Source of the DNA: Actinomycetes bacterium
GTDB lineage: Bacteria; Actinomycetota; Acidimicrobiia; Acidimicrobiales; JAKAOS01
Assembly: GCA_021795215.1 (NCBI GenBank)
Contig: JAJYPS010000003.1
Coordinates: 1 to 51,373 of the forward strand
DNA length: 51,373 nt
Direction: 5' to 3'
Below are positions 2,122 to 29,880 of the stretch, piece after piece; the first letter of the stretch is position 1; every line of letters starts with the position of its first letter. A program made the position numbers and the translations under genes. Under the pieces are notes generated by a model, which had not been told where the DNA came from, searched no databases, and worked only from the letters and a program-made list of their open reading frames with translations.

Positions 2122-2301
2122 GGGAGCCGGGAGTCCAACCGGCACCGGGCTCCGGGCCGGGCGCAGCACACGAGAGGGGGGCTTCCCTCGGTCCACTCCC
2201 TCCGACACTCCCGGCCGGCGCCTAGACCGCCCCCTTGCCGCCGTCGTGCCATTATCAGCCAGTGCTCTGCCCTGCGCACAGCTGGTCGACGCCGGGACTG
2301 C

Positions 2302-4008
2302 TCAGGTGGAAGAGCGTAGTTGAACAAGACTGGGGATGGAGGCTCCTGGTTCCTTACACCTGTCGTGACACTCCTTCTCCAATGTGCAGCAGAGAGAGCA
2401 GATGCCGCCTCCGTGGAACGGGCATGCCGCCATGTCGGCGATCTCGTAGGACTCCGCGCACACCCTGCATCCCAACTCGACCTCGGCGACGGTGGGGCCG
2501 TCGGTGGTGGCGTCGGCGAGGGCTGCCTCGGCCATCAGATCCGGCCGAGCGAGGTAGTAGCGGCCCTTGGTGGCCAGCGCGATCAGCGGTGAAGCTACGA
2601 ACGCTATCAACAGCGCAAGAAAGGGAGAGAACGCCTGGGCGAACGGGCCGAACGTGCCGAAGAACGCCGCCACGGAGACAGCCGACGCAATCAGCATCGA
2701 GCCGAAGCCGACCGGGTTGACCGTATGGAGGTGGGCCCGCTTGAACTCGATGTACGGAGGGCTGATCTTCAGCAGTGGCTTGTTGATCACCAGGTCTGCC
2801 ACGACCGCTCCCACCCAGGCGATGGCGACGTTGGAGTAGAAGCCCAGCACGAAGTTGAGGACCCCGAACACGCCGCCCTCCATCAGACCGAGGGCAATGG
2901 CCACGTTGAAGAATATCCACACCACCCTGCCGGGGTGCCAGTGGAGCACCCTGGAGTAGAAGTTGGACCACGACAGCGATCCCGAGTAAGCGTTGGTCAC
3001 GTTGATCTTTATCTGGGACAGCACCACGAACACCGTGGCCGCCGCAAGTGCTCCGACGGGCATGAACGACTTGAAGCCTCCGAGAAGCTGCTCTATGGGC
3101 TCGACCGCTTTGGTGAGCCCGACCTGCGAGGCCACGTAAAAGGCGAGGAATGCTCCCGACAGCTGCTTGACTGCGCCCAGCACGACCCAGCCCGGACCGG
3201 CGGCGATAACCGACAGCCACCACCGCTTTGCGTTGGCATCGGTCTTGGCAGGCATGAACCGCAGATAGTCCACCTGCTCGCCTATCTGGGCGATCAGCGA
3301 GAGGGCCACGCCGGCTCCCAGACCCATCGCTATGAAGTCGAAATGGGATCCGTTCTTGGCTGTACCACCGAAGTGAGTCCACCCAGAGAACGCATGCGGG
3401 CTGGTCACAGCTATGGCCACCAACGGAGCGGCCATCATCACCAACCACAGGGGCTGCGTCCAGACCTGCAGCTTGGACAGCGCCGTCATGCCGTACATCA
3501 CCAGCGGGATCACTATGAGCGACACGATCAGATAGCCCACCGCCACCGGTATGCCGAGCGACATCTGAAGCGCCTGGGCCATGATCGAGCCCTCGAGCGA
3601 GAAGAAGATGAACGTGAAGCTGGCGTAGATCAGCGACGTGATCGTGGAGCCCAGATAGCCGAAGCCCGCACCCCGGGTCAGCAGGTCCATGTCGATCGAG
3701 TAGCGGGCGGCGTAGTAGGCGATGGGGATGCCGGTGAGGAAGATGACCGACGCCGCGAGCAGGATCGCCCACACGGCGCTCGAGAAGCCGTGAGTCACCG
3801 CGATGGAACCGCCGATGGCGTAGTCGGCCAGGTATGCGATGCCGCCGAGCGCCGTGGTCGCCACCACGTACTCGTTCCATTTGCGGTACTTGGCAGGCGC
3901 GTAGCGGAGCGAGTAGTCCTCCATCTTGGCATTGCCGACCAACCCGCCGTAGCGGCGGACCCGCTTCGGACTGCCTTCGGCGACGACGGAAGCCTGTTCC
4001 AGAGTCAT
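2302..4008 (-). CDS. Purine-cytosine-permease-like membrane protein with C-terminal Cys-rich (Zn-finger-like) tail
   Basis: Start MTLEQ at 4008 after an AAGGAG RBS. Motifs EDYSLRYAP, IDMDLLTRGAGFGYLGS, KINVTNAYSGSLSWSN; about 13 TM segments; tail CRVC...CPFH...ICSLCC...CHD.CK. Confidence 0.85.
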   Translation of the reverse strand: MTLEQASVVAEGSPKRVRRYGGLVGNAKMEDYSLRYAPAKYRKWNEYVVATTALGGIAYLADYAIGGSIAVTHGFSSAVWAILLAASVIFLTGIPIAYYAARYSIDMDLLTRGAGFGYLGSTITSLIYASFTFIFFSLEGSIMAQALQMSLGIPVAVGYLIVSLIVIPLVMYGMTALSKLQVWTQPLWLVMMAAPLVAIAVTSPHAFSGWTHFGGTAKNGSHFDFIAMGLGAGVALSLIAQIGEQVDYLRFMPAKTDANAKRWWLSVIAAGPGWVVLGAVKQLSGAFLAFYVASQVGLTKAVEPIEQLLGGFKSFMPVGALAAATVFVVLSQIKINVTNAYSGSLSWSNFYSRVLHWHPGRVVWIFFNVAIALGLMEGGVFGVLNFVLGFYSNVAIAWVGAVVADLVINKPLLKISPPYIEFKRAHLHTVNPVGFGSMLIASAVSVAAFFGTFGPFAQAFSPFLALLIAFVASPLIALATKGRYYLARPDLMAEAALADATTDGPTVAEVELGCRVCAESYEIADMAACPFHGGGICSLCCTLEKECHDRCKEPGASIPSLVQLRSST

Positions 4009-4020
4009 TGCTGGCTCCTT

Positions 4021-4052
4021 TCGGATGGTTGGGCCTTCTCGGATGGTTGGGC
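4021..4052. repeat. 14-bp direct repeat TCGGATGGTTGGGC x2 (18-bp period)
   Basis: Copies at 4021 and 4039, between the fmdA stop and the permease start. Confidence 0.85.
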
Positions 4053-4072
4053 TCTTTCGGCTGCTGGGCAAG

Positions 4073-5320
4073 TCATCTGGCCGTGGCGCAGCTGCCCCGG
4101 TCGGACGCTTCCGGTCCCGCCGTGGAGGGGCGGATGTCGAAGTCGAATATGGCCGTGGGTATGTACAGCGAGCAGCAGGCGTTGGGAATGTCGACCACTC
4201 CGCTGATGCGGCCCTCCACCGGCGCTGCACCCAGGATCAGATAGACCTGCTCCGGAGAGAAACCGAACTTGCTCAGGTAGGCGATCGCATTGAGGCAGGC
4301 CCGCCGATAGGCCAAGGTGGCGTCGAGGTAGTGGTTCGTGTCGCTGTCGTGGTCCACCGAGATGCCGACGAAGGTCAGGAACTCGCTGTAACGGGGCTCC
4401 ACGTTGCCCGGCTGGAAGATCGGGTTCGTGGTCACCCCGTACGTTTCCATTCCGCCCTTTATCAGGTCTATTCCGAGATCTATGAAGCCGCCCATCTCGA
4501 TGGCGCCGCAGAACGTGATCTCGCCGTCGCCTTGACTGAAGTGCAGGTCGCCTCCGGAGAGCTTGGCGCCCGGCACGTACACCGGGTAGTAGACGCGCGA
4601 GCCACGGGTCAGGTTCTTGATGTCGTGGTTGCCGCCGTTCTCACGGGGGGGCACGGTGCGGGCCCCCTCCCGGCCGATCCTGTCGAGGTCCGGCCCGGAC
4701 AGGGTTCCGGCCAGCACTCCGGACGGCTCCGGCGGCAGCGCAAGAGGGGGCACCCGCTCCGGATCGGTCGCCACAAGCGACGCTTCCCGGGCGTTCCAGC
4801 GAGCCAGCATCTCCGGCGAAGGGGCCGTGCCGAACAGTCCGGGATGGGTTATGCCGGTGAAGCGGACACCCGGCAGGTGGCGTGACGTCGCCTGCTGGCC
4901 GTGGAAGTCCCATATGGCCTTGTAGGCGTCGGGAAAATAGTCGGTCAGGAAACCGCCGCCGTTCTCCCTGGCGAAGATGCCGGTGTAGCCCCAGCCCTGT
5001 CCGGGAGCCGGGCCGCTCTCCTGCGGCACCGGTCCGAGGTCCAGGATGTCCACCACCAGCAGGTCTCCTGGCTCCGCACCTTCCACCGACACCGGCCCGC
5101 TCAACATGTGGGCCCTCGTCAGGTCCACGTCCGCCACGTCCCTGGCCGAGTCGTTGTTGCCTATCTGGCCGTCGGTCCACTCACGACACTCGATCCGCAC
5201 CTCGCTGCCCGGTCTCACGTTCGCTGCGGCAGGCACGTCGGGGTGCCACCGGTTGTGGCCCGGCACGGCCTGTTCGGTCATCGACTTGGACTGGTCCACC
5301 GAGAACACCACTTCGGGCAT
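4073..5320 (-). CDS. fmdA: Formamidase (FmdA/AmdA acetamidase/formamidase family)
   Basis: Start MPEVVFSVD; GHNRWHPDVP, ECREWTDGQI, ENGGGFLTDYFP, PPRENGGNHDIK, GDLHFSQGDGEI, DATLAYRRACLNAI. Confidence 0.93.
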   Translation of the reverse strand: MPEVVFSVDQSKSMTEQAVPGHNRWHPDVPAAANVRPGSEVRIECREWTDGQIGNNDSARDVADVDLTRAHMLSGPVSVEGAEPGDLLVVDILDLGPVPQESGPAPGQGWGYTGIFARENGGGFLTDYFPDAYKAIWDFHGQQATSRHLPGVRFTGITHPGLFGTAPSPEMLARWNAREASLVATDPERVPPLALPPEPSGVLAGTLSGPDLDRIGREGARTVPPRENGGNHDIKNLTRGSRVYYPVYVPGAKLSGGDLHFSQGDGEITFCGAIEMGGFIDLGIDLIKGGMETYGVTTNPIFQPGNVEPRYSEFLTFVGISVDHDSDTNHYLDATLAYRRACLNAIAYLSKFGFSPEQVYLILGAAPVEGRISGVVDIPNACCSLYIPTAIFDFDIRPSTAGPEASDRGSCATAR

Positions 5321-5601
5321 CAGGCGCTCCTCCCGGCCAGCGGAGCGGAGCAGCAACTCGCCGAAGCACAGGACGAGGCGCCGCCTTGGCAACGGAGCAC
5401 TACTTCGGGCTCGTCTCGGCACTTCTCCTCCCTCGCCCGGGCCGCAAGGATCGGTGAAGCGGCAGTCGAGAACGACGCCGAGAAGACCCTCCGTGCCGAA
5501 GTGCCGCAGGAGCCGCAGGGCAGCGCTGCAGGCGCGCTGCCCATCGGTAGCGACTCGGTGAACGGCCCGCAGGCCGGGCAGCGGAATGCGTAAGGTGTCA
5601 C
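5320..5601 (-). CDS. fmdB: FmdB-family zinc-ribbon regulatory protein
   Basis: GTG start, TPYAFRCPACG...LPCGSCGTSARRVFS...RDEPEVV; TGATG overlap with the fmdA start. Confidence 0.85.
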   Translation of the reverse strand: MTPYAFRCPACGPFTESLPMGSAPAALPCGSCGTSARRVFSASFSTAASPILAARAREEKCRDEPEVVLRCQGGASSCASASCCSAPLAGRSA

Positions 5602-5608
5602 GTCTCTT

Positions 5609-5648
5609 CTCCCGTGTGTGGCAATGGTCCTCCCGTGTGTGGCAATGG
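5609..5648. repeat. 19-bp direct repeat CTCCCGTGTGTGGCAATGG x2 (21-bp period)
   Basis: Exact copies at 5609 and 5630, immediately upstream of fmdB. Confidence 0.9.
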
Positions 5649-5753
5649 AAGCAACTGCAAAGTGGTTCCGCTCAGGCGTCGACAGCTCTCTGGGTTCCCG
5701 GTGCCGAGCACTCCCCTCTCGTGTCGACCCCGCTCGGGGCGGTGTGCTCGCAT

Positions 5754-5795
5754 CAGGCGATGTCTCTTGGACAGCAGGCAATGTCCCTTGGACAG
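5754..5795. repeat. 21-bp tandem duplication CAGGCRATGTCYCTTGGACAG
   Basis: Copies at 5754 and 5775 with two mismatches. Confidence 0.85.
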
Positions 5796-6218
5796 GTTTT
5801 CCGGCAATTGCAACGCTACTCAGCGTGAGAACAATTATGCACGGCGGTCCTCCATTCCCCCCCGTCTCGGAGCCTCCAACACCCCACTACCGATGCATGA
5901 TCTCGAACACGAGCTGAAGGTTAGATAAGCAAACGGCTCCACATGTTGCCGATATATGTACAGTGCGTTAACTAGATCTCTGACGTCGCCGTGACCGACC
6001 ATCCCGTCGCACTCCGGGCCCACTTGCAACCAGTAGGGCGGTAGAACGACGACGACCGTACTGCTGCCGTCGGTCGCCGGTATCCAATATGACATAGAGG
6101 GCTACAGGCCAATCATGCTGTCTGCGAACCGTCCATCTCTTCTATGACGTGTGGCCCGCACGGGTCGTGCTCTCAGGTCGGGGCCCGAACAGGTCGAGGG
6201 GCCCGAACCGCACTTGCC

Positions 6219-7778
6219 CTAAACAGCTCTGTCTATATCCAAGCCGGACGCGGCGATCAAACGAGGGCGGTCGGAGCGGTTGCCTTCGGAGGCTCTTCGG
6301 TGACGCGCCGCGTAGTACGCAGCTCCGACCAGCAGGCCACCAGACAGGACGATGGGTCCCCAGACAGTCGGGAAAACGACAGGGTAGAACGTGTAATAGA
6401 TGCCGAGCACGGTGGACGCCAGCGATGCGAGCGGCAGAACGACGTGGGTGACCGCTCTCGTCATTCGCCTCTTCCGAGCGAAGGCAGGCAGCACGGCATT
6501 TCCCAGGATGTGCCCGACAAACTCTCCCATGGTCCCGACGAGGATCAACACGAGAAACGCCGTGTCGGGACCGGCCGCCGCGCCGGCTATCACGGCCCCG
6601 AGGGCAGCTACGGCGAACGTCGAGGCGACCGCCACCCGTGGGCTGCCGCTACGGGAGTCCACTCTTGCGACCGGGGCGGGGAGCATCCCACACTCGCCCA
6701 TGGCATAGGCGACTCTGCTCACCACCAAAGTCGAAGCAACGATGGCGCTGGCGATGCTGTTGGCCATGAACACCGGTGCCGGGATCTCTGCGGGCGTACC
6801 CAGGAAGTGCTGGATCACCAGCAGGCCGGGAATGTTCGAGGCGGCGAAGCCGGCCATCTTGCCGGCACCCCAACCGACGGTCATGGCGTAGGACACCAGC
6901 AGGAACACGACCACAACGGCCGAGGTGGACCACAGCAGACCGCGCCTGATGGTCCGGTGGGGCAGCTTGGCCTCGTGACCCAGGTAGACCGTGGCGGTCG
7001 ATCCGGACATCGAGAAGTCGGCCAGCAGCATGCCGATGCCTACTCCTGCAAGCCCGTTGTGGGCGAGGGCAGGATCGAACACGCGGCCCGTGTTGGCGGG
7101 GCCGGCCAGCACCACGATGGCCACCGCGGCACCCACCATGAGAACGAGCTCGATCATCCCAGTCACCAGGCCATAGCGCAGGGACGGGCGCACCCCCCGG
7201 TAGACGAGGCCGATCGGGACGGCCAGGACGGCTACGGGCAACACGACCCACACCCAGGAGGGACCTGTAGAGAGGTGGAACTGGGCCAGCAGCGACTGGA
7301 CCATCACCGAGAAGTAGACCGCACCTGCAGCTGCGAAGGCGGCGTAGTAGATGGCGTAGCAGAGCCCCGTCAGAAACCCGACGAAACCGTTGCTGCCCTG
7401 GGTGACGAAGTAGAACATGCCACCAGAGCTGGCCAGCTTCTTCGAGTACTGCAGCGGCGTATTGACCCACAGCCACACCAGCACGGCACCCAGCAGGTAT
7501 GCGAGCGGCATCGCCCCACGGGCGTAGATCGCCGCAGAGGTCATTACGGCACCCATGCACAGCAGCGGACCGTTGGCGATTATGCCCTGTGCGATCACAT
7601 GTCCTACAGCGGCGCTGTCCCGCTGGAGGCCGCTGCCGGCTACGGCCGAAGGCCCACCGGCGGTCGTCGCATCGCCCAGCAGCGATCCGGTGGACCTTGT
7701 GGCGGTCGACCGATCGCCTCCCACGCCGGCAGCTTGGCTGGTGGAAACCCGCGACGCGCTTCGGAACGTGAATATCAT
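6219..7778 (-). CDS. APC-superfamily amino acid/polyamine-type permease (candidate guanidine importer)
   Basis: About 12 TM segments, LASSGGMFYFVTQG, YLGHEAKLPHRTIRR, SRVAYAMGECGMLP. Same strand and 91 bp downstream of the guanidine hydrolase. Confidence 0.88.
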   Translation of the reverse strand: MIFTFRSASRVSTSQAAGVGGDRSTATRSTGSLLGDATTAGGPSAVAGSGLQRDSAAVGHVIAQGIIANGPLLCMGAVMTSAAIYARGAMPLAYLLGAVLVWLWVNTPLQYSKKLASSGGMFYFVTQGSNGFVGFLTGLCYAIYYAAFAAAGAVYFSVMVQSLLAQFHLSTGPSWVWVVLPVAVLAVPIGLVYRGVRPSLRYGLVTGMIELVLMVGAAVAIVVLAGPANTGRVFDPALAHNGLAGVGIGMLLADFSMSGSTATVYLGHEAKLPHRTIRRGLLWSTSAVVVVFLLVSYAMTVGWGAGKMAGFAASNIPGLLVIQHFLGTPAEIPAPVFMANSIASAIVASTLVVSRVAYAMGECGMLPAPVARVDSRSGSPRVAVASTFAVAALGAVIAGAAAGPDTAFLVLILVGTMGEFVGHILGNAVLPAFARKRRMTRAVTHVVLPLASLASTVLGIYYTFYPVVFPTVWGPIVLSGGLLVGAAYYAARHRRASEGNRSDRPRLIAASGLDIDRAV

Positions 7779-7869
7779 GAGGACACCTCGCTGGTCGATG
7801 AGGAGATGAGCACGACGGAACGTGAGGCTTCGGCTCGGCCCCTGGAGTCGGTCGGAGCGCTGATGGGTC

Positions 7870-9033
7870 TCACAGGGCCGCGTTGCTGCGGGAGGAAGGC
7901 AGGTGTCCCGCTCTCACCAGGCACCCGAGGACGTCGCAGATGACCCTGGTGGCGACCAGGGACGTGATCTCGGCACTGTCGTAAGGTGGCGAGCACTCCA
8001 CCACCTCGATGCCGGCGAGGGGCCGCTCCGACACCAGTTGGACGAACTTGAGCACCTCCCGTGGCAGGAAGCCTCCCGGCTCCGGCCAGCCGGTGCCGGG
8101 GACGAACGCAGCGTCGAGGCAGTCCACGTCGAAGCTGAGCCAGACCGCCTCCGCCCCGCGCCAGGCCACCTCGAGCGCCCTTTCGGCAGCCGCCTCTATG
8201 CCCATCTCGACGCAGTCGGTGACGGTCATGATGGTGGTGCCCCGTTCCCGGCCGACCTTGACACCCGGGCGGGGCGCCTGCCACCCGCCGATCCCTATCT
8301 GCACCAGGTTCTCCGGTGGGACGTTCGGAAGGTCCGTAGCATGGAACCACGGGGTCGTGTGCATCCGCTCGTCGAGGTCCGTCTCCTGTGTGTCGACGTG
8401 CCGGTCGAAATGGATGATGCCCAGGTTGCCCTGGAGTTGCCGGGCGACGCCGCGCACCGTCGGGTACCCGATCGAGTGGTCGCCTCCCAGTACCACAGGG
8501 AAGGCACCGGACCCGTAGACGTGGGCGACGGCTTTGGTGATCTGGTCGAACGTCTTCTCGATGTTGCCAGGGATCGTGAAGATGTCCCCCAGGTCGCCGA
8601 TCGTGATGGACTCTCGCAAGTCGACGCCCAGCTCGAAGCTGTAGGGCCCGTACAGAGCGGAGATCTTGCGGATGCCCTGCGGCCCGAACCTTGTGCCCGG
8701 CCGGTACGTGGTGCCGCCGTCGAACGGGGCACCCAGCACCGCCACGTCGTACTCGCCGCAGCGCCGGACGTCCTCCACGAATGGCGCCTTGAGGAAAGTG
8801 TTGATGCCGGCGAAGTGCGGCAGCTCGCCTCTGGAGAACGTCGGGATGCGCCGGTCCCCGATGGAGTCGGCTGCCGGTAGGCCGAGCTCGAGGCCGCGGG
8901 CCACCTCCCGCTCCCAGGCCGCCGTAGGCAGCTCTGCTTCGGCCGCCACTGCGTAGGCAGCTTCGACTCCGTACCGGCCGTGGCGCAGCGTTCCGGGGTG
9001 GTGTTGGGTCGGTTCGGCGGCGTTGTCGGTCAT
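7870..9033 (-). CDS. gdmH: Guanidine hydrolase (GdmH-type, arginase/ureohydrolase superfamily)
   Basis: Start MTDNAAEP after AGGAGG. Metal ligands GGDHS, DRHVD, SFDVDCLD. GdmH-type features: N-terminal extension with IPTFSRGELPHFAGINTF, GTTYRPG, MHTTPWFH, and Trp in GTGWPEPGG (Thr in canonical agmatinases). Guanidine riboswitch upstream. Confidence 0.85.
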   Translation of the reverse strand: MTDNAAEPTQHHPGTLRHGRYGVEAAYAVAAEAELPTAAWEREVARGLELGLPAADSIGDRRIPTFSRGELPHFAGINTFLKAPFVEDVRRCGEYDVAVLGAPFDGGTTYRPGTRFGPQGIRKISALYGPYSFELGVDLRESITIGDLGDIFTIPGNIEKTFDQITKAVAHVYGSGAFPVVLGGDHSIGYPTVRGVARQLQGNLGIIHFDRHVDTQETDLDERMHTTPWFHATDLPNVPPENLVQIGIGGWQAPRPGVKVGRERGTTIMTVTDCVEMGIEAAAERALEVAWRGAEAVWLSFDVDCLDAAFVPGTGWPEPGGFLPREVLKFVQLVSERPLAGIEVVECSPPYDSAEITSLVATRVICDVLGCLVRAGHLPSSRSNAAL

Positions 9034-9090
9034 GGACTCCTCCTGAGAGAGACGGCGCCGGGCCTGTGGCCCCTTGGCGTGGCTGTCGTA

Positions 9091-9196
9091 CTCTCCCGGG
9101 CTTTTGTCCCGCCGTGGAACGCCGCCGAGCGGCGCCTGCACCTCTTGGACCAGTCCCGCCGTCCCGACGGAACGGCGGCGGAACCCTAGATGCGCC
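9091..9196 (-). ncRNA. Guanidine-I (ykkC-yxkD) riboswitch
   Basis: Minus strand: GCAUCUAGGGUUCCG...GACUGGUCCAAGAGGUGC...CACGGCGGGACAAAAGCCCGGGAG, matching the guanidine-I consensus blocks. P1 GCAUCU/AGGUGC can pair. Confidence 0.93.
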
Positions 9197-10811
9197 TCAT
9201 GTGGAGTGAGTCGTGCCCAGTGTGGACCGTTCGTGTTTCGTTCGGTTTTCGCATTTGTGAACGATCCGTTGCAGACAAATCACCGCTGCTGTCCTCCGGT
9301 AGGTGCAACCACGAGTGCCTTGCCGGCGCAACCGATTCGCCAGACTCGTCCAAGAATGCGGCCGTGATGCGGGAGGAACCGCGGGACCGCTCAGCCTGTA
9401 AGGAAACGGCTATCGTGCCGTTCTTGACAGTCGTGCCGTCTCGCAGCAGGCTCGCAAGATCTTCGGGCGACTTACCGAACATCTTCAAATAGCACTTGTA
9501 GTACTCCTTGAAGATCGCCGTGGCCGCCATCGGATCGCACGGGTGCCAGCCCTCATTGACGTCGACGGCTGCAGGGGGATGTCCCATCCCGGCCGTAACA
9601 GTCCATCCCGTAGGGCAGCGTATCAGTAGCGGGGGCTGGTCCCGGTATGCCAGCCGGGTGGTGATCGTGGTGGCCGGCCAGAGCCGGACGGTCCGCCGCC
9701 AGGGAGCCCACCGCAGCTCCACTTGACCGGGGCCGCCACAAGCGGAGTGGAAACGAACCCACACGTCGCCCCGCCAGTAGTGCGGAAAGTGCACGCGGGT
9801 GCGGGATCCCTGAGACACCGTGGGGACGGACTCCAAAGTCGCATATCCGCCAAGTCGGTAGAGCGCGTCCAGCCGGGAGCCCAAGCTGCGCACCTTCGGT
9901 CGGCCACCAGCCTCCACGAGGCTGATCTGGTCGTCGGTCACTGGCAACGTCGGAAGCATTCGGGTCACCCTCTCTGCGACGGTGCGTTGCGACAGGCCTC
10001 GCGCCTCTCTCAGCGCTCTGTAGCTGGAACCGGGCAGAGGCAGGGAAGAGCCGTTGCCGCACTGCCATCCGTCGATTTCGTTCTCCCGAGCGGCCGCCCG
10101 CGGCAGCGACGACGAGGTGCCTCCGTCCGAGCGGCCGAAGGCATCCGGACCGAACGCCTCTTCCAACAGCTCACACCGGCTGCCCAGGAACGACTTCAGT
10201 GCACCGAGCCAATCTCCGCGCTCCCCCAGCAGAAGCTTCGCTTTGGAAATGAACACTTCGAGCGCCGGATCCGTCCTCGAGGCCAGCTTCAGGTCCGAGA
10301 ACCCGTTCATCACCGGCAGACCGAGACCGTCGGGGACCACGCCTTGGCCGAAGTCCACCCAACCGGGCTGCGACAGCTCCACACGGGCTCCCGGATTGAC
10401 CACCGATACCGGCACCGAGACGACGAGGCCGTCGGTGCCACCTCGAACGTTCGCCCTCACGGACAACGGACCCCACCTGATGGAGAGCCTCGCCTCCGTC
10501 GCACCGGCGGGCAGGCGCACCCAGCCCCAGACAGGCCCACCGCCCGAGCCGTAATTGTGCCGCCACACTTCGCGAGCAGGCAGTGCACCGGTGGACGGAA
10601 GGGCGACCGCCATGTCCACGAGTGCGCCCCCCGCCCCGTACGCTGCGTCCAATCTTGCCATCTTGGCCGCATCCGGTCTCCGCAGGCCCGACTCCCAGTT
10701 CGAGACGGCCGGTCTGCCGACGCCCAGCAGCGACGCCACCGTGCTGGCATTCATTCCAACGCACTTTCGCCATCCGCGTAACAGCCAACCCAGTGACAAC
10801 TCTGCGCTCAA
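9186..10811 (-). CDS. Protein with two XRE-type HTH domains, each followed by a similar unknown beta-rich domain (internal duplication)
   Basis: LRGWRKCVGMNASTVASLLGVGRPAVSNWESG...RLDAAYGAGG and YRALREARGLSQRTVAERV...QISLVEAGG...RLDALYRLGG. Downstream paired motifs VWGWVR..SIRWGP / VWVRF..ELRWAP. Confidence 0.8.
   Translation of the reverse strand: MSAELSLGWLLRGWRKCVGMNASTVASLLGVGRPAVSNWESGLRRPDAAKMARLDAAYGAGGALVDMAVALPSTGALPAREVWRHNYGSGGGPVWGWVRLPAGATEARLSIRWGPLSVRANVRGGTDGLVVSVPVSVVNPGARVELSQPGWVDFGQGVVPDGLGLPVMNGFSDLKLASRTDPALEVFISKAKLLLGERGDWLGALKSFLGSRCELLEEAFGPDAFGRSDGGTSSSLPRAAARENEIDGWQCGNGSSLPLPGSSYRALREARGLSQRTVAERVTRMLPTLPVTDDQISLVEAGGRPKVRSLGSRLDALYRLGGYATLESVPTVSQGSRTRVHFPHYWRGDVWVRFHSACGGPGQVELRWAPWRRTVRLWPATTITTRLAYRDQPPLLIRCPTGWTVTAGMGHPPAAVDVNEGWHPCDPMAATAIFKEYYKCYLKMFGKSPEDLASLLRDGTTVKNGTIAVSLQAERSRGSSRITAAFLDESGESVAPARHSWLHLPEDSSGDLSATDRSQMRKPNETRTVHTGHDSLHMRRI
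9235..9261 (-). promoter_or_regulatory. Putative GlnR-like box upstream of the guanidine riboswitch
   Basis: Minus strand TTCAC-n6-GAAAA-n6-GAAAC (11-bp period); an imperfect match to the actinobacterial GTNAC-n6-GAAAC consensus. Confidence 0.4.
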
Positions 10812-17345: not shown

Positions 17346-18311
17346 ATGGCCCTAGCACCCCATAGACCTGCCGAGACCCTTGATACTCGCAAGGGAGCAG
17401 ACCAGCGCGCGCAGGCGGCGCGCCTGCTGGACAACAGGTCCCGAGTGGCCATGTGGCTGGGCTTGACGCTCGGACTAGGCGTGTACGGGATGTTCGGTCT
17501 CGTACCGGCGGCGGCCAACGTGGCCGTGTCGGCCACCAACTACTCCGGCCTTGCAGGATCGTCCATCAGCTTCACTGGCCTCCACAACTATGTGGCGCTG
17601 TTCACGACGGAGAGGCCGGGGTTCGTGGCAAGCCTCCTCGCTACCGTCATCTTCGTCATAAGTGTCTCCCTGGCACAGAACGCGTTCGCCCTGGTCCTCG
17701 CCCACCGACTCCAAGGCACAGGCCGGGTGGCGGCCGCTCTGCGAGTGCTCGTCTTCCTGCCCATCGTGCTGGGCGTCACCATCGTCGGGCTCATCTGGAT
17801 CCTCATCTTCGATCCGTCCCAGGGCCCGGCGGAGGCGATAGCGAACGCATTTGGTCTGCACTCGGCATTCCTGGGATCGTACGCCGGAGCTATGCCAATA
17901 GTCATCCTAGTGCAGATATGGCAAAACGTGGGTTTCTCCACCCTTGTATTCGTAGGCGGCCTCCGTGCGATCAATCCAGATATCTATGAAGCAGCGTCCA
18001 TCGACGGTGCCGGCTCGTGGCGTAGATTCGCTTCGATCACCTTCCCGTTACTGGCTCCCTCGATGACGGTGAACCTGTTGCTGGCCTTCGTCGGATCCCT
18101 GACGACTTACAATCTGATCTACGTGCTGACGAGCGGCCTCTACCGCACCGACACACTGGGCATGCTGGCATTCAACAGTGCCTTTGGAACCTCGGCAGAC
18201 CTGGGCTACGGCGCTGCGGTAAGCGTGGTGCTGTTCCTGGTCGCTCTCGGCACAGCGCTGCCGCTGATGGCGGCGCTGCGCCACCGGGAACGAAGACTGC
18301 TACCGGCATGA
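17346..18311 (+). CDS. Carbohydrate ABC transporter permease
   Basis: FTGLHNYVALF; LRAINPDIYEAASIDGAGSWRRF (EAA motif). Confidence 0.92.
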   Translation: MALAPHRPAETLDTRKGADQRAQAARLLDNRSRVAMWLGLTLGLGVYGMFGLVPAAANVAVSATNYSGLAGSSISFTGLHNYVALFTTERPGFVASLLATVIFVISVSLAQNAFALVLAHRLQGTGRVAAALRVLVFLPIVLGVTIVGLIWILIFDPSQGPAEAIANAFGLHSAFLGSYAGAMPIVILVQIWQNVGFSTLVFVGGLRAINPDIYEAASIDGAGSWRRFASITFPLLAPSMTVNLLLAFVGSLTTYNLIYVLTSGLYRTDTLGMLAFNSAFGTSADLGYGAAVSVVLFLVALGTALPLMAALRHRERRLLPA

Positions 18312-19138
18312 GAGCCCTGGCGGCCAAACGCTCTCGAGTCGTCTACAGGGCCAGTGGTGCCGTGGTCATCGGCCTGATCTTTTTCCTACCGGTGCTTTAC
18401 GCCGTCATGATCGCCTTCGAGCAGCCAGCACACTTTTTGCGGAATCCACTGGCACCTCCGCTGCACCCCGCGTTTGGCAACTTCGTGCTGGCCTGGCGCG
18501 CTGCCAATCTCGGGGAGGAACTTCTGAACACGGTGCTGTACTCCGTCGTGGCGTCCGCCACTTCCACGGTGCTGGGACTCCTGATCGCGTTCCCACTTGC
18601 CCGGCGACTGATCCGGCGCGCCTCTGCGGTCTACGGGGCACTGGCCGCCGGCCTGTTCTTGCCGTTTGCGATCATCCCGCTGTTCGTTGAAGCAAGATTT
18701 CTTCATCTCTACGACAATCGCATAGGTTACATCATCCTACATGTCGAGCCTGGCCTGCCCCTGGCAGTGGTGCTGCTCACAGCCTTTATCTCCTCCGTGC
18801 CGCGGGAGATGGACGAGGCGGCTGTGCTCGATGGGGCGGGGTACCTCCGCTACCTGGTGGCCGTAATCGTGCCGCTGACGTGGCCAGCGCTCTTGATCTC
18901 TTTCCTCTACGGGTTCCTGGCCGTATGGAACGACATAATTGGACCTGTCGTCTTCCTCGTTCGTCCGAGCCTCTTCCCCGTCACCAGAGGGATCTACAAC
19001 TTCTACGGTGCCAACCAGAGCGAGTGGACGCTGCTCGCGGCCGCCATCATCCTGGCCAGCTTGCCGGTGGTGGTGTTGTTCATCGCCTCGCAACGCCAGC
19101 TCATGCAGTCCACAATCGCCGGGGCTACGAAGGGATGA
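18308..19138 (+). CDS. Carbohydrate ABC transporter permease
   Basis: FISSVPREMDEAAVLDGAG (EAA motif); ATGA overlap. Confidence 0.92.
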   Translation: MRALAAKRSRVVYRASGAVVIGLIFFLPVLYAVMIAFEQPAHFLRNPLAPPLHPAFGNFVLAWRAANLGEELLNTVLYSVVASATSTVLGLLIAFPLARRLIRRASAVYGALAAGLFLPFAIIPLFVEARFLHLYDNRIGYIILHVEPGLPLAVVLLTAFISSVPREMDEAAVLDGAGYLRYLVAVIVPLTWPALLISFLYGFLAVWNDIIGPVVFLVRPSLFPVTRGIYNFYGANQSEWTLLAAAIILASLPVVVLFIASQRQLMQSTIAGATKG

Positions 19139-25225: not shown

Positions 25226-26470
25226 TCAGTCCAATCCGTACACTCGCAGGGCGTTGCCGGACCCCACAAGCGATCCCAGCCGGACCAGCTCCTCGTTCCC
25301 GAAGCCTGCGCTGGACAGCGGCTGCAGCACCGAGGCGAGCGCCTCCCGCCACAAGCCCACGCCCAGGTGGTACAGCTCTGCCAGCCCGAAAGCGTCGGAC
25401 GAGTACAGCACTTTGTGCCACGGCGCAAGCTCCAGAGCCTCGGCCAGGATGGCAGCCGCACGGTGGCCGGCGTGTGGGATCGCCAGGCCCACGTCCATGT
25501 AGACGTGCGGCCACACCATTGCCAGGTAGCCCGCCTGGCGGTGGTAGGGCCAGCAGTGCAACAGCATGATCGGGGAGCGCCCGTCGGCTGTCGCCCGGAT
25601 CAGCGGATCGAGCAGCGTCGGGTCCGCCGATGCCAGACGGACGTCGTTGTCCCCGAACCCCGTGTGGAACTGCACCGGAAGCCCCGAGTCCAGAGCTGCC
25701 CACACCCCGTGCGCGATCAGCACCGGATTCTCCAATCGCCATCTCCCCTGCCGGTCCGGCTCCGCCGACAGCCACTCCCTCGCTGCTTCCCTGACCTGAG
25801 CCGGGCCAGGACGGCTCCAGTCAAGTCCCAGTCCGCAGCGGTAAGCGGCGACCGACTTCCACCCCGAGACGCCGCGACACTTCTCCATCTCCTCTTCCAG
25901 CCGCTCCGCGTACGTCCTCGCCGCACGGCCGGCCATCCTGGCAGCTATGGCCCTGTTCGGTACCGCGCCGCCTTCGCCGGTTCGGCCGGTCCCGCCATCC
26001 CAGAATGTGTGGGTCGCCACCCGCTCGGCCAGAGTCTCCAACCGCGCCACCTCTGCCACTCGGCCACCGGTCCACCCCGCCATCTGGTCCACGCTGCACA
26101 ACTCGTCCGGCGCGTACCCGGTGTCGACAAGATAGGTCGACGCCCCGCCAGACATCAGCCTTCGGTGCACCTCGTCCGTCCCCAGTTCGGCCCGGCGCTC
26201 GACGTACTCGGCGATACCCGCACCGACTGGGAGGTCCAGCACCGGGGCGCACAACGCCCGGACTGCCAGTCCCAGGCCGGTGTCCGCAGCCGAGCACCCC
26301 GCTGGGGCCGCAAAGGCGCCCTCCCCAAGCAGCCGCTCGAACCGGTCGCCCCCCAGGGGCCCGGCGACCAGCTGATGGCAGTGGTGGTCCACCAGCTCCA
26401 AGTCGCGGGCGATCCCAGCTACAACGGCCGCCGTCTCGGCAACGTCGCCGCCGTCCGCATACGAGCTCAC
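25226..26470 (-). CDS. Amidohydrolase (FluG N-terminal-like; partner of GlnA3-type synthetases)
   Basis: DHHCH, KSVAAYR, QFHTGFGD, LLHCWPY, YSSDA; GTG start after GGGAG. Confidence 0.88.
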   Translation of the reverse strand: MSSYADGGDVAETAAVVAGIARDLELVDHHCHQLVAGPLGGDRFERLLGEGAFAAPAGCSAADTGLGLAVRALCAPVLDLPVGAGIAEYVERRAELGTDEVHRRLMSGGASTYLVDTGYAPDELCSVDQMAGWTGGRVAEVARLETLAERVATHTFWDGGTGRTGEGGAVPNRAIAARMAGRAARTYAERLEEEMEKCRGVSGWKSVAAYRCGLGLDWSRPGPAQVREAAREWLSAEPDRQGRWRLENPVLIAHGVWAALDSGLPVQFHTGFGDNDVRLASADPTLLDPLIRATADGRSPIMLLHCWPYHRQAGYLAMVWPHVYMDVGLAIPHAGHRAAAILAEALELAPWHKVLYSSDAFGLAELYHLGVGLWREALASVLQPLSSAGFGNEELVRLGSLVGSGNALRVYGLD

Positions 26471-26492
26471 CTCCCGGCCGGACGGCTGCCCG

Positions 26493-28022
26493 CTACCAAA
26501 CCCACCTGCTGCCGACGGCGATCTCCTCGTCGGACGACGCCGCAAAGCGCTCCAGCTCGGCCCGCCGTACAGCCGAGAAGGCATTCGCCAGCTGGTCGCC
26601 CATTGCCGACCGCAGCACCTCGCTCCGGTCCAGCTCGTCCAGCGCCTCGCCAAGCGAGCGAGGAAGGCGCATCACACCGGCAGCCTTCCTCCCGTCGTCG
26701 TCAAGCAGTGCCGGATCGACAGTCACCTCTTGCGGCAGTGTCAGTGACCGCCTCACCCCGTCGAGACCTGCAGCCAAGACAGCGCCGGTCACCAGGTACG
26801 GGTTGGCACTGGCGTCAACCACCTTCAACTCGACGTTCGCCCCCTCCGGTCCACCCCACGCTGAACCGGCAACCAGGCGCAGCGCCGCCTCTCGATTCTC
26901 CCGGCCCCAGCAGCGCCACGGAGCGGCCCATCGCTGCGGCTGCAGCCGCAGGTAGCTGGCCGCGCTGGGCGCCACCACCGCCATGAGTGCCGGCAGCGCA
27001 TCCAGGATGCCCGCCAGCCACGCCTCGCCCACAGGGTCCAGCCCCGAAGGCCGGCACCGCGCCTCGTCCGATGCCGCCCCGATCCCAATCGTGGCGGAAG
27101 ACATCACCGGAGCCAGCAAGTTGGTCGACCCTCGCCACAGCGACATGTGCAGATGAGCACCGTTGCCCACGCCCTCGGGCTCGAACGCCGGGGACAGCGA
27201 CACCCGCCACCCGTGCCTTGCCGCCACTGCCCTCAGTGTCTGGCGCACGACCACCACTTCGTCCGACGCACCAACCGGGCCCTTCGGTGCGACCGACAAC
27301 TCCATCTGCGACGGCGCATACTCCGGGTGCAGCTGCACCACCTCCACGCCCGAACCCGCCAACATCGCCAGCAGCTCACTTGAGAAGCCCGCCACGTCCA
27401 CCAGCCGTCCCATGCCGTAGGCAGGGCCGGTCGTGACCGGCACCAGCCGGTCCTCCCCCGCCACCCCATCCGGCCCCAGGCGGCCATCCTTGCCGGCGTC
27501 CAGAACCCATTCCGTCTCGAACGCCATCTTCAACTCCAGTCCTGCGGCAGCTGCCCGCTCCTGCTGGCGGTGTGCGAAGGCCCGCTGGCATCCCGGATGG
27601 GAAGAGCCGTCCAGCGCCACTCGCTCCGCAGGCGCCCACGCCCAGCCCGGCATCGCGGCCAGCGATCTCAGGGCCGCCAGGTCCGGCAGCATCCGCAAGT
27701 CGCCCACCGGCGAGCCGCCTGGTGCGATGCTGTCGTCGCCACCGAAGAAGTCAAACACCGGCGGTGCGCCTATGCCGTTGGCGGCCGCCTGAGCCAGCCG
27801 TTCGACCGGCATCGCCTTCACCCGCGCCACGCCGCTGTTGTCCACCATCGTCACCGCCACCGCGTGGATGCCGTTGCGGCGCAGTGCCTCGGCCGCCTCC
27901 AGGGCCCGGTAGGGGTCACCTGGCGACCGGGAGCCGGCGGTAGCCACACCGCTGCGATGCCCATCTCCCGTGGGCGTGTCTCGAATCAGCGAAACCTCCT
28001 CCGGCGGGACGTGGGCCGACAA
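26493..28022 (-). CDS. Glutamine synthetase-family protein, GlnA3-like (probable gamma-glutamyl-polyamine synthetase); start uncertain
   Basis: VDNSGVARVK, FETEW, LHPEYAPSQMEL, GNGAHLHMSL, WGRENREAALR, NVELKVVDASANPY. Confidence 0.85.
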   Translation of the reverse strand: MSAHVPPEEVSLIRDTPTGDGHRSGVATAGSRSPGDPYRALEAAEALRRNGIHAVAVTMVDNSGVARVKAMPVERLAQAAANGIGAPPVFDFFGGDDSIAPGGSPVGDLRMLPDLAALRSLAAMPGWAWAPAERVALDGSSHPGCQRAFAHRQQERAAAAGLELKMAFETEWVLDAGKDGRLGPDGVAGEDRLVPVTTGPAYGMGRLVDVAGFSSELLAMLAGSGVEVVQLHPEYAPSQMELSVAPKGPVGASDEVVVVRQTLRAVAARHGWRVSLSPAFEPEGVGNGAHLHMSLWRGSTNLLAPVMSSATIGIGAASDEARCRPSGLDPVGEAWLAGILDALPALMAVVAPSAASYLRLQPQRWAAPWRCWGRENREAALRLVAGSAWGGPEGANVELKVVDASANPYLVTGAVLAAGLDGVRRSLTLPQEVTVDPALLDDDGRKAAGVMRLPRSLGEALDELDRSEVLRSAMGDQLANAFSAVRRAELERFAASSDEEIAVGSRWVW

Positions 28023-28138
28023 GACCTGGACGGCGGCCCAGACACCGCGTCGTACATCCGCAATCCCTGTCCCCGTCAACCATAACCAACCGAGCCGTCC
28101 GGATGCCGGACCCGCACTGCGAAAACGCGAGGCCCCGT

Positions 28139-28180
28139 CGCAAAGAAACACAGCCGCAAAGAAACACAGCCGCAAAGAAA
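28139..28180. repeat. 16-bp tandem repeat CGCAAAGAAACACAGC x2.6
   Basis: Copies at 28139 and 28155, partial at 28171; lies in the divergent promoter region between the GlnA3-like gene and the permease. Confidence 0.9.
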
Positions 28181-28311
28181 AAGGACGGTAAATGGGGTTG
28201 GCAGGAGCCGGCTGCTGTGCTGTCATGGCAGCAGCTTTTGCCAACGGCGCCGGAAGCGGGACCAGCAGGATGTCCGGGGGACCTCGGGCCCGACAGACCG
28301 AGGAGGACACC

Positions 28312-29880
28312 GTGGCAGTTGACCAGCGGGACGACACCGGCCGAACGCCGGAGCTGAGGCGCAACCTGAAGCTGTGGCAGGTGATCGGGCTGTCGGTGGG
28401 CTTGATGGCGCCGTCGATGGCGATCAGCATCAATCCTCAGGGGGCGATCGCTGCGGTCGGGCGTGCCATCCCCCTGTCGTTCCTCATCTCGATGGTGGGA
28501 GCGCTGCTGGTCGCCTACGGCTTCTCCAGGCTGTCGCAGCACTTCCACAACTCCGGCTCCGTGCTTGGCCTGGTCGGTGCGACCCTCGGTCCCCGGGCGG
28601 GCGTCGTGGCCGCATGGTGCCTGAGTGGCACCTACCTCCTGTTCGCCCTGCTGACCGGCGTCACGGCCGGTATCTACGGCACCCTGCTGGCCCAGGCGGT
28701 CGGCATCGTCCACGGCGATCCGGCCTGGCTCCAGTACGCACTGGGCACCGTGGCGATCCTCGGGGCGGGCCTGCTGGCGGCAGTACCGACGTCGAAGGCG
28801 ACCGACATGATCCTGTCCTTCGAGGGCGTCACCGTCAGCCTGATCGCCGTCGTGGCGGTCGTCGTGCTGGCAGAGTTGATCGGCCGCAGCGGTCCAGGTC
28901 ACCTGCCTTTCACCTGGAGCGTGTTCGCGCCGGCCAAGGGCACAACCGTGTCCAACGTGTTCCTCGGCGTCGTGTTCGGCTTCCTGTCCTTCGGCGGGTT
29001 CGAGGCCGCTGCGGCGCTGGGCGGCGAGGCAGCCAAGCCCCGCCGCGACATACCGAGGGCGCTGTTGGGCACCGTCGGGGCGATCGGCGTGTTCTACGTT
29101 GCCATCAGCGCGATCGAGGTGATGGGCTTCGGCACGACAAAGGCCGGCCTGGCGCACTTCGCAGCCTCGCCGGCCCTGCTCGGCACGCTCGGGCAGACCT
29201 ACGTCGCCCCCTGGTTCGGTGACCTGATCATGCTGGGCACCGTCGTAAGCGCTTTCGGGTGCAGCATGGCCTCCGCGGTGGGAGCTTCCAGGATGATCTA
29301 CTCCTTCGCCCGGGACGGCTTGTCGCCCTCCCATCCGCTGGCTCGTCTGTCTCCCCGGTGGGCCACTCCCATTCCGGCGGTGTCGGTCGTCGTCGGCACC
29401 GAGATCGTCGTCGAGATCGCCTTGGCGGCGATCGTCGGCGCGGCGCCGCTGTCGCTGTTCGCCTGGGCCGGGTTCGTGTCGACCCTGCTGCTGCTCGTCG
29501 CGTACGGCCTCGTCACCGTCGGGGCGGGACTGTTCCTCGTCTTCAGGGCACCCGCCTCGGGCAAGCCGGCCAGTGCCGTGACCAGGGTGGCCGATGCACT
29601 CGTGCCCCTGGCCGGCCTGGCCCTCCTGGCGTACACCATCTACCGCAACCTGGTTCCCTACCCGACCGGCCCTGACGCCTGGCTGCCCGTGGTCTCGGCT
29701 GCATGGCTGGCCATCTCCCTCGGCTACGTCGTCCTTTCGCCCGCCTCCAGCCGTCGCCTGGGACAGCGGATGGTGCTGGACGAGGGGCTCGGCTCCGACT
29801 CCGGCTCGGTCGCTCCGCTCCGCACGACGGGATCGGTCGGAGGCGGAGTGTCGCCTGCCGCGCCTGGCGCCGCCCGTTGA
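28312..29880 (+). CDS. APC-superfamily permease (candidate polyamine/amine importer)
   Basis: GTG start after AGGAGG; LSVGLMAPSMAISINP, FGGFEAAAALGGEAAKPRRDIP, SRMIYSFARDG. Confidence 0.9.
   Translation: MAVDQRDDTGRTPELRRNLKLWQVIGLSVGLMAPSMAISINPQGAIAAVGRAIPLSFLISMVGALLVAYGFSRLSQHFHNSGSVLGLVGATLGPRAGVVAAWCLSGTYLLFALLTGVTAGIYGTLLAQAVGIVHGDPAWLQYALGTVAILGAGLLAAVPTSKATDMILSFEGVTVSLIAVVAVVVLAELIGRSGPGHLPFTWSVFAPAKGTTVSNVFLGVVFGFLSFGGFEAAAALGGEAAKPRRDIPRALLGTVGAIGVFYVAISAIEVMGFGTTKAGLAHFAASPALLGTLGQTYVAPWFGDLIMLGTVVSAFGCSMASAVGASRMIYSFARDGLSPSHPLARLSPRWATPIPAVSVVVGTEIVVEIALAAIVGAAPLSLFAWAGFVSTLLLLVAYGLVTVGAGLFLVFRAPASGKPASAVTRVADALVPLAGLALLAYTIYRNLVPYPTGPDAWLPVVSAAWLAISLGYVVLSPASSRRLGQRMVLDEGLGSDSGSVAPLRTTGSVGGGVSPAAPGAAR

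Follow-up and report, generated by a model that had tools for sequence, protein, structure and literature searches.

A riboswitch-led guanidinase and APC permease operon in an uncultured mine-drainage actinobacterium

How small can a set of genes be that serves to draw nitrogen from guanidine? This question is raised by a locus on a 51,373-nucleotide (nt) stretch of DNA, here called the window, in which a guanidine-I riboswitch, a gene for a guanidine hydrolase (gdmH) and a gene for an APC-superfamily permease follow each other in this order on the minus strand. The window is contig C102 of a metagenome-assembled genome (MAG) of an uncultured actinobacterium from a mine-drainage metagenome (2.6 Mb in 152 contigs, 92.7% complete, 68% GC). 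A sequence-only reading of the same DNA had described the locus as a stripped guanidine-to-urea module without nickel chaperones. Our analysis confirms that riboswitch, guanidinase and permease form a real operon, and we consider it very probable (about 0.85) that it is a guanidine-inducible two-gene operon for nitrogen scavenging.

In the proposed mechanism, the downstream genes would be switched on once free guanidine has bound to the guanidine-I aptamer of the 5' leader. The APC-fold permease would bring in guanidinium, and the GdmH/guanidinase-type ureohydrolase would convert guanidine to urea and ammonium. Urea would then be finished by urease (ureABC-ureFGD), which is encoded on another contig outside the control of the riboswitch and is presumably coupled to the operon. 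As in Nitrospira inopinata, metallation of the hydrolase would do without chaperones of the HypA/HypB (GhaA/GhaB) type. The parts of the operon are:

9091..9200, minus strand: guanidine-I (ykkC subtype 1) riboswitch aptamer, RF00442
9034..9090, minus strand: expression platform, the 57-nt linker between aptamer and ATG
7870..9033, minus strand: gdmH, predicted Ni-type guanidine hydrolase (guanidinase) of 387 residues, assigned by PF00491 and PDB matches
7779..7869, minus strand: gdmH-permease spacer of 91 nt, with GAGGTG ahead of the ATG, read from the sequence
6219..7778, minus strand: APC-superfamily permease of 519 residues, putative guanidinium importer, PF13520

A scan of the whole window with Rfam cmscan gave two matches over threshold, one tRNA and one Guanidine-I (RF00442). 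The latter, at 9200-9091 on the minus strand, scored 82.8 bits (gathering threshold 63, E 2.5e-13) and spans model positions 1-107 of 107 without truncation. The class-invariant blocks CUAGGGUUCCG, ACGGCGGGACAAAAGCCCGGGAG, GGUCCNAGAG and ACGGNGGGANAAAAGCCCGGGAG are found in the aptamer, and its sole deviation from the consensus, GGUCCAAGAG (G-to-A), recurs in 8 of the 70 aptamers of related loci. The gdmH start codon is the ATG at 9033-9031, preceded by the Shine-Dalgarno sequence AGGAGGAG at 9044-9037. The sequence-only reading had placed the aptamer 57 nt before the hydrolase gene, and this distance proved exact when counted (9090-9034, same strand); its aptamer limit at 9196 has to be moved to 9200. 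The guanidine-I riboswitch is present as a single copy in the genome, and a genome search for a guanidine-III riboswitch gave no match, but none in the control genomes either. From the ON logic of the riboswitch class, guanidine is expected to bind this leader RNA and to activate expression.

The protein encoded at 9033-7870 matches Pfam Arginase (PF00491, E 4.5e-79, residues 96-369), and since the domain begins only at residue 96, it carries an N-terminal extension of ~95 residues. Among all PDB sequences, the best match was 9FEK (E 3.6e-209, 698 bits, 80.4% identity over 367 columns), followed by 7ESR/7OI1 (Sll1077; E 3.7e-167, 560 bits, 65.2% identity); the third, proclavaminate amidinohydrolase, reached only E 7e-54 and 186 bits. 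9FEK is the N. inopinata guanidinase and 7OI1 the GdmH of Synechocystis (PMC11410670), and guanidine-specific activity has been shown for both enzymes (PMC11410670, PMC12186494). Four residues thought to confer guanidine specificity, Thr105, His222, Trp313 and Glu344 in N. inopinata numbering (PMC11410670), are all identical in the alignment with 9FEK (+2 offset of the deposited chain) and lie in the motifs GGTTY, MHTTPWFH, GTGWPEPGG and VVEC. The metal-ligand motifs LGGDHSIG (GGDHS), HFDRHVDT (DRHVD) and SFDVDCLD (DVDCLD) are intact. The NCBIfam models for agmatinase, arginase and HutG (formimidoylglutamase) all stay below their curated cut-offs (214 vs 302; 166 vs 174). Based on the PDB matches, the conserved specificity and metal residues and the sub-cut-off NCBIfam scores, we treat the protein as a GdmH orthologue, in agreement with the earlier call of a GdmH-type hydrolase with an N-terminal extension and the Trp and MHTTPWFH motifs; its sequence thus predicts guanidine hydrolysis and the use of nickel.

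One genome per species was scanned, and gdmH loci were found in a number of at least 558. Neighborhood counts were made in the best 80, which are 78-91% identical and belong to Actinomycetota, Chloroflexota and Nitrospirota. A same-strand guanidine-I riboswitch lies upstream of gdmH in 60 of the 80 loci, within 400 nt in 56. As transporter within 4 kb of gdmH, a NitT/TauT-type ABC system was found in 37/80 loci, a Nitrospira-type APC permease in 22/80, an SSS-family carrier in 5/80 and the window-type APC permease in 2/80, while 14/80 had none. Within the order to which the window belongs, 6 of 61 genomes have gdmH, a patchy distribution.

The permease encoded at 7778-6219 matches PF13520 (AA_permease_2, E 1.9e-22, residues 81-481) and PF00324 (E 2.2e-21), which bears out the earlier statement that an APC permease follows the hydrolase. 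All NCBIfam subfamily models score far below their cut-offs. The start codon is fixed by the orthologues, which have this N-terminus in common (MTLTFRS..., MSLTLHP...). In blastp, the best alignments with Nitrospira-type permeases show 26-30% identity over 126-146 residues, and the protein falls into a separate cluster. Nothing closer than ~30% was found in 400 genomes sampled across the phylum, and a search of 5.8 billion proteins yielded only 31 clusters of this subfamily; the closest named relative is from Aciditerrimonas ferrireducens. By sequence comparison, this rare, non-orthologous APC subfamily is the distinctive part of the window. The label "uncharacterised APC guanidinium importer" proposed by the sequence-only reading is a fair one, with an APC subfamily that differs from that of Nitrospira.

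The genomic context was obtained for the window and 14 further subfamily members, drawn from 12 contig look-ups and from loci L030 and L057, the last of which is also among the look-ups. At 59% identity or above, the permease gene lies downstream of a GdmH-sized arginase-family gene in nine of nine loci (the window, L030, P0003, P0007, P0012, P0013, P0018, P0019 and P0020, which is L057), and the six of these that were tested with Rfam all have a guanidine-I riboswitch ahead of gdmH. A member at 40% identity is also found behind an arginase-family gene, the contig of one at 49% is too short to show the context, and three members at 42-44% are not located behind such a gene. A guanidinium importer is the most likely function, the sole basis for this being the strict co-location with gdmH.

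It is possible, if unlikely, that the permease imports no guanidinium: its cargo might be another pathway-linked compound, e.g., urea, an amino acid or a substituted guanidine, or it might export guanidine like Gdx/SugE. The three members at 42-44% identity fit such a role, since they are found next to GntR and a glutamine-synthetase-like gene, next to another APC permease and an amidohydrolase, and ~5 kb from a urea/guanidine carboxylase-like gene; moreover, among solved structures the closest, matched at E 3e-4 only, is CAT1, which transports cationic amino acids. In the operons of the closest orthologues, a Rieske oxygenase and an uncharacterised protein are encoded as well, which hints at uptake of a guanidine precursor, but the window contains neither the oxygenase nor the small protein. 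Against these alternatives, the permease at 59% identity or above is always operonic with gdmH and is under a guanidine riboswitch wherever tested, and an assimilatory hydrolase needs a supply of its substrate. In addition, the same operon position is held elsewhere by an ABC importer, a Nitrospira-type APC permease or an SSS carrier, and this variety of carriers argues for an interchangeable uptake role.

Other gdmH-linked carrier types were not found in the genome. Queried by tblastn with substrate-binding and permease components taken from the gdmH loci of relatives, the genome yielded no GimA/GimB-type (GimABC) guanidine ABC importer, and neither a Nitrospira-type APC orthologue nor a gdmH-linked SSS carrier was found. 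The earlier claim that the window contains no ABC importer thus holds for guanidine-type importers and needs correction for ABC systems in general, as an unrelated ABC membrane component (BPD_transp_1) is encoded at 18308-19138. The CT_C_D domain gave one match in the genome, in a frame of 489 residues; as this is not a carboxylase of ~1200 residues, the genome shows no guanidine carboxylase.

In relatives, the operon usually continues into ureABCFGD (L098, L112, L113) or has two extra genes (L096, L097, L111). These extra genes are located between gdmH and the same APC permease in the closest relatives, including A. ferrireducens (L096:4363-6004, L097:4276-6004, L111:3299-4898, L110:4338-4850). 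One encodes a Rieske/Ring_hydroxyl_A oxygenase of 350-372 residues and the other an unknown protein of 137-207 residues with the motifs WLSGAWWR, FLDLRGPGP and PHLRWHH; L110 has the small protein only, without the oxygenase. Together, the two may serve to liberate guanidine from a substituted form of it. Since both are absent from the window's genome, the window represents the most reduced version of the operon.

The gap of 91 nt between gdmH and the permease gene would allow for a riboswitch that governs gdmH alone and a permease with its own promoter in the spacer, in which case co-location would not imply co-regulation. We consider this improbable, because neither a terminator-like nor a promoter-like site was found in the spacer (7779-7869), the two genes are 1-3 nt apart or overlap in orthologous loci, and in comammox Nitrospira the transcription of both the guanidinase and the APC permease gene is induced by guanidine (PMC11410670). 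In the source sample, 4503-8241 is covered by a Logan DNA contig, and the join of fmdA, permease and gdmH 3' end is therefore no assembly artefact. A physiological substrate other than guanidine, with the hydrolase acting on substituted guanidines as an agmatinase, a guanidinobutyrase or a similar ureohydrolase, can practically be dismissed: the best NCBIfam matches of the hydrolase are agmatinase models, and 9FEK and 7ESR were deposited in the PDB as "putative/probable agmatinase 2", but the agmatinase, arginase and HutG scores are far under the curated cut-offs, the two top PDB matches are guanidine-specific enzymes (E ~1e-209 and 1e-167 vs 7e-54 for the next), the specificity residues are kept and a guanidine riboswitch lies upstream.

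How the predicted guanidine-responsive leader would act on gdmH was addressed by analysis of the linker. It contains a hairpin, GGGCC/ACA/GGCCC, at 9072-9060 and a pyrimidine tract, CUCUCUC, at 9051-9045; in the structure of minimum free energy, this tract is paired with GGGAGAG in the tail of the aptamer. No intrinsic (U-tract) terminator was found in the expression platform, so that control is probably exerted at translation initiation or by Rho-dependent or non-canonical termination. The length of the aptamer-to-start spacer is conserved (median 51 nt in 52 loci), with T-runs in just two loci. RNAalifold, applied to 46 leaders, recovered only the aptamer helix P3.

Most actinobacterial gdmH leaders contain two mutually exclusive, covariation-supported hairpins between aptamer and Shine-Dalgarno sequence and no U-tract. 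In our alignment A1 of 46 gdmH leaders, these hairpins occupy columns 31-35/49-53 and 45-51/70-75 and overlap at a common GGC(U) segment. The H2 hairpin is paired in 89% of cells, compared to 17-46% when slid, and has 18 double-change cells, a number reached by 0 of 500 shuffles; for the H1 hairpin, 77% of cells are paired, compared to 12-50% when slid. Judged by this covariation, the hairpin pair of the relatives is a conserved, predicted bistable expression platform. The window's own linker fits the two hairpins loosely.

Several results weigh against a guanidine-inducible operon of the kind proposed here. Duplex energies between aptamer tail and linker and between linker and Shine-Dalgarno sequence were no better than those of shuffles, and the accessibility of the Shine-Dalgarno/AUG region was 0.356 with the real aptamer and 0.348 with dinucleotide-shuffled ones (p = 0.37); these null results lend no computational support to a specific sequestering model. 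The region upstream of the aptamer gave no sigma-70-like promoter. Metatranscriptome contigs from three runs of the same study include none on 2300-9400, which is a weak negative, as rare transcripts are lost from contigs. A NiCoT-type nickel importer (PF03824) was not found in the genome. Finally, with the MAG 92.7% complete, genes scored as absent (hypAB, a nickel transporter) could be located in the missing part.

An open reading frame upstream of the operon (window 9186-10811, minus strand) encodes a protein of 541 residues with two XRE-type helix-turn-helix units (PF13560, two stretches), and its stop codon (9186-9188) falls within the 5' end of the aptamer (9200-9091). As no sigma-70-like promoter was found between this frame and the aptamer, the operon may be read through from the frame or use a non-consensus promoter.

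The second part of the question concerns the metal. Genome-wide, no HypA exceeded the cut-off and one weak partial match (19.5 bits) was found inside a frame of 514 residues. Searches for G3E GTPases (PF02492) gave one strong match, UreG on contig C21, and a weak CobW-like frame on C118. Neither the HypA nor the cobW search produced a match on C102. The absence of HypA/HypB-type nickel chaperones, which the sequence-only reading had stated for the window, thus extends to the searched genome (92.7% complete), and dedicated ghaAB genes in another riboswitch operon were not found either, as there is no second guanidine-I riboswitch. The same reading had reported no urease in the window; on contig C21, outside the riboswitch operon, the genome encodes ureA, ureB, ureC, ureF, ureG and ureD, which completes the pathway from guanidine via urea to ammonia. 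UreF, UreG and UreD are the only recognizable nickel machinery in the genome.

Related loci show a similar picture. In none of the 80 loci is a HypB-like G3E gene located at a distance of 10 kb or less from gdmH. Using the genome's UreG in tblastn, we detected G3E genes in 13 of them, all of which are UreG orthologues (63-76% identity) that adjoin ureC wherever the locus extends that far. Urease genes are located within 10 kb of gdmH in 15 of the 80 loci, 12 of which also have ureG. HypA over the Pfam cut-off is absent from 26 of 50 gdmH genomes, including the complete 10.5-Mb genome of Dactylosporangium fulvum, and where it is present on the gdmH replicon, it is hundreds of kilobases or more distant. 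Of these 50 genomes, 48 encode a urease. RF02514 ("5_ureB_sRNA") matched above its gathering threshold antisense to actinobacterial ureC (L096, L097, L098, L030, L057); these matches most likely reflect conserved urease coding sequence rather than a small RNA.

We tentatively put forward that, in lineages that lack GhaA/GhaB, this genome among them, GdmH may be metallated as a second client by UreF/UreG/UreD or without any chaperone, and that the permease may found a new guanidinium/H+ importer family, dedicated to this cargo, in the APC superfamily; at present, we would not expect this combined proposal to hold. The co-occurrence of urease with gdmH is expected from the pathway alone and therefore does not discriminate for UreFGD-assisted loading.

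The N-termini of GdmH are rich in histidine in many Actinomycetota (L012, L020, L024, L009, L061 and others; first 10-30 codons), with tails such as MGFHHHHHHHHQHH..., MGFHHHHHPHQ..., MHWHP... and MHYHP... and poly-His in Micromonosporaceae. In 52 loci, histidine makes up 17% of the tail compared to 2.8% of the whole protein. The tail of the window's GdmH has three His in 20 residues, and the Nitrospira tails are not His-rich. A His-rich N-terminal tail as a general built-in nickel hook was therefore rejected, since the chaperone-less Nitrospira do not have one and the window's tail is only weakly His-rich. A small His-rich partner protein next to gdmH was not found in the window either. Elsewhere in the genome, C139:37004-37297 (minus strand) encodes a protein of 80-97 residues with ~30% histidine (HDHHHVHVTH...HSHSHSALVHSHHPHH), which has no family match and is unlinked to the guanidine locus. 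It is the only convincing small His-rich open reading frame in the genome and is divergent from a membrane protein gene whose product looks, by eye, like a Ca2+/cation antiporter.

The operon has neighbors with related functions. Directly downstream lies a second nitrogen-scavenging unit (2302-4008, 4073-5320 and ~5320-5605, all on the minus strand), which includes an FmdB-like zinc-ribbon gene (PF09723, 30.6 bits, below cut-off), the formamidase gene fmdA (NF045496, E 1e-199) and a gene for a protein of 568 residues with 12 transmembrane segments and a Cys-rich C-terminal tail. The latter has no match in Pfam, NCBIfam or PDB and more than 6000 homologous clusters at E <= 1e-10; identity among the best 120 is 66-81%, apart from one with 99%. 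Some homologues are labelled "purine-cytosine permease-like" by their sources, and orthologues adjoin gdmH or urease in L037, L056, L078, L098 and L057. The protein may thus transport a small amide, urea or guanidine. Between the stop codon of the guanidine operon's permease and the fmd unit, the GC content drops to 54-55% at 5800-6140 (genome 68%). As relatives carry urease genes at this position, the dip may mark a junction from a rearrangement of the gene cluster. It contains an open reading frame of 86 residues (5835-6095, minus strand) without a family match. A third nitrogen-scavenging cluster at 25226-29880 encodes Amidohydro_2, glutamine-synthetase-like (Gln-synt_C) and a further APC permease (28192-29880, plus strand) and resembles gamma-glutamylation-type amine utilization loci.

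Taken alone, the window adds little, as the sensor, the enzyme and the chaperone-less layout have all been published. The sequence-only reading had assumed nickel chaperones in comammox Nitrospira and, accordingly, novelty for the stripped module. The published comammox module consists of riboswitch, APC permease and guanidinase and lacks Ni chaperones in locus and genome (PMC11410670), so that the minimal layout was already known, and the 80 related loci with no HypB-like gene nearby likewise speak against its being novel. A 2025 review gives the same composition for Nitrospira; for Synechocystis, an ABC importer and ghaAB are described alongside riboswitch and gdmH (PMC12186494, PMC12704784). 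In a wider sense, our survey indicates that the guanidinase route is widespread in Actinomycetota and highly conserved. Outside cyanobacteria, independence from HypA/HypB-type maturases is the norm, which sharpens the question of how nickel is loaded, and a small genome with only UreFGD as nickel machinery would provide a clean natural background for chaperone-free or urease-assisted maturation. The uptake step is modular, with at least four unrelated carriers at the same operon position that represent a panel of candidate guanidinium transporters.

Among known systems, comammox Nitrospira (N. inopinata; Palatinszky et al. 2024, PMC11410670) is the closest. It shares with the window the riboswitch class, a guanidinase that is 80% identical, an APC-superfamily permease in the operon, the lack of an ABC importer and of Ni chaperones in locus and genome, and a urease encoded elsewhere. 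The gene order differs, being riboswitch-permease-gdmH in Nitrospira and riboswitch-gdmH-permease in the window, and the window's permease is not orthologous (~28% identity over ~140 residues, separate cluster). The hosts differ as well: the window derives from an uncultured mine-drainage actinobacterium that is not a nitrifier, for which guanidine is thus probably a nitrogen source only. The gdmH-ghaA-ghaB and gimABC genes of Synechocystis sp. PCC 6803 (sll1077-sll1082; PMC12704784, PMC12186494) have in common with the window an RF00442 leader on gdmH (65% identity), the conversion of guanidine to urea and ammonium and a urease located elsewhere, whereas the window and its genome lack the GhaA/GhaB (HypA/HypB-like) maturases and a GimABC-type importer.

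Actinobacterial gdmH loci with NitT/TauT-type ABC importers (e.g., in Micromonosporaceae, Streptosporangiaceae and Pseudonocardiaceae) resemble the window in that the riboswitch lies directly upstream, gdmH is 85-93% identical and hypAB are not nearby; they differ in the carrier, an ABC importer (37/80) as opposed to the window's rare APC subfamily (2/80). Gdx/SugE represent riboswitch-controlled export of guanidine as detoxification. The guanidine carboxylase pathway (guanidine carboxylase, CgdAB and allophanate hydrolase) shares with the window's operon the sensor and the aim, nitrogen from guanidine, and reaches it by a different, ATP-dependent chemistry.

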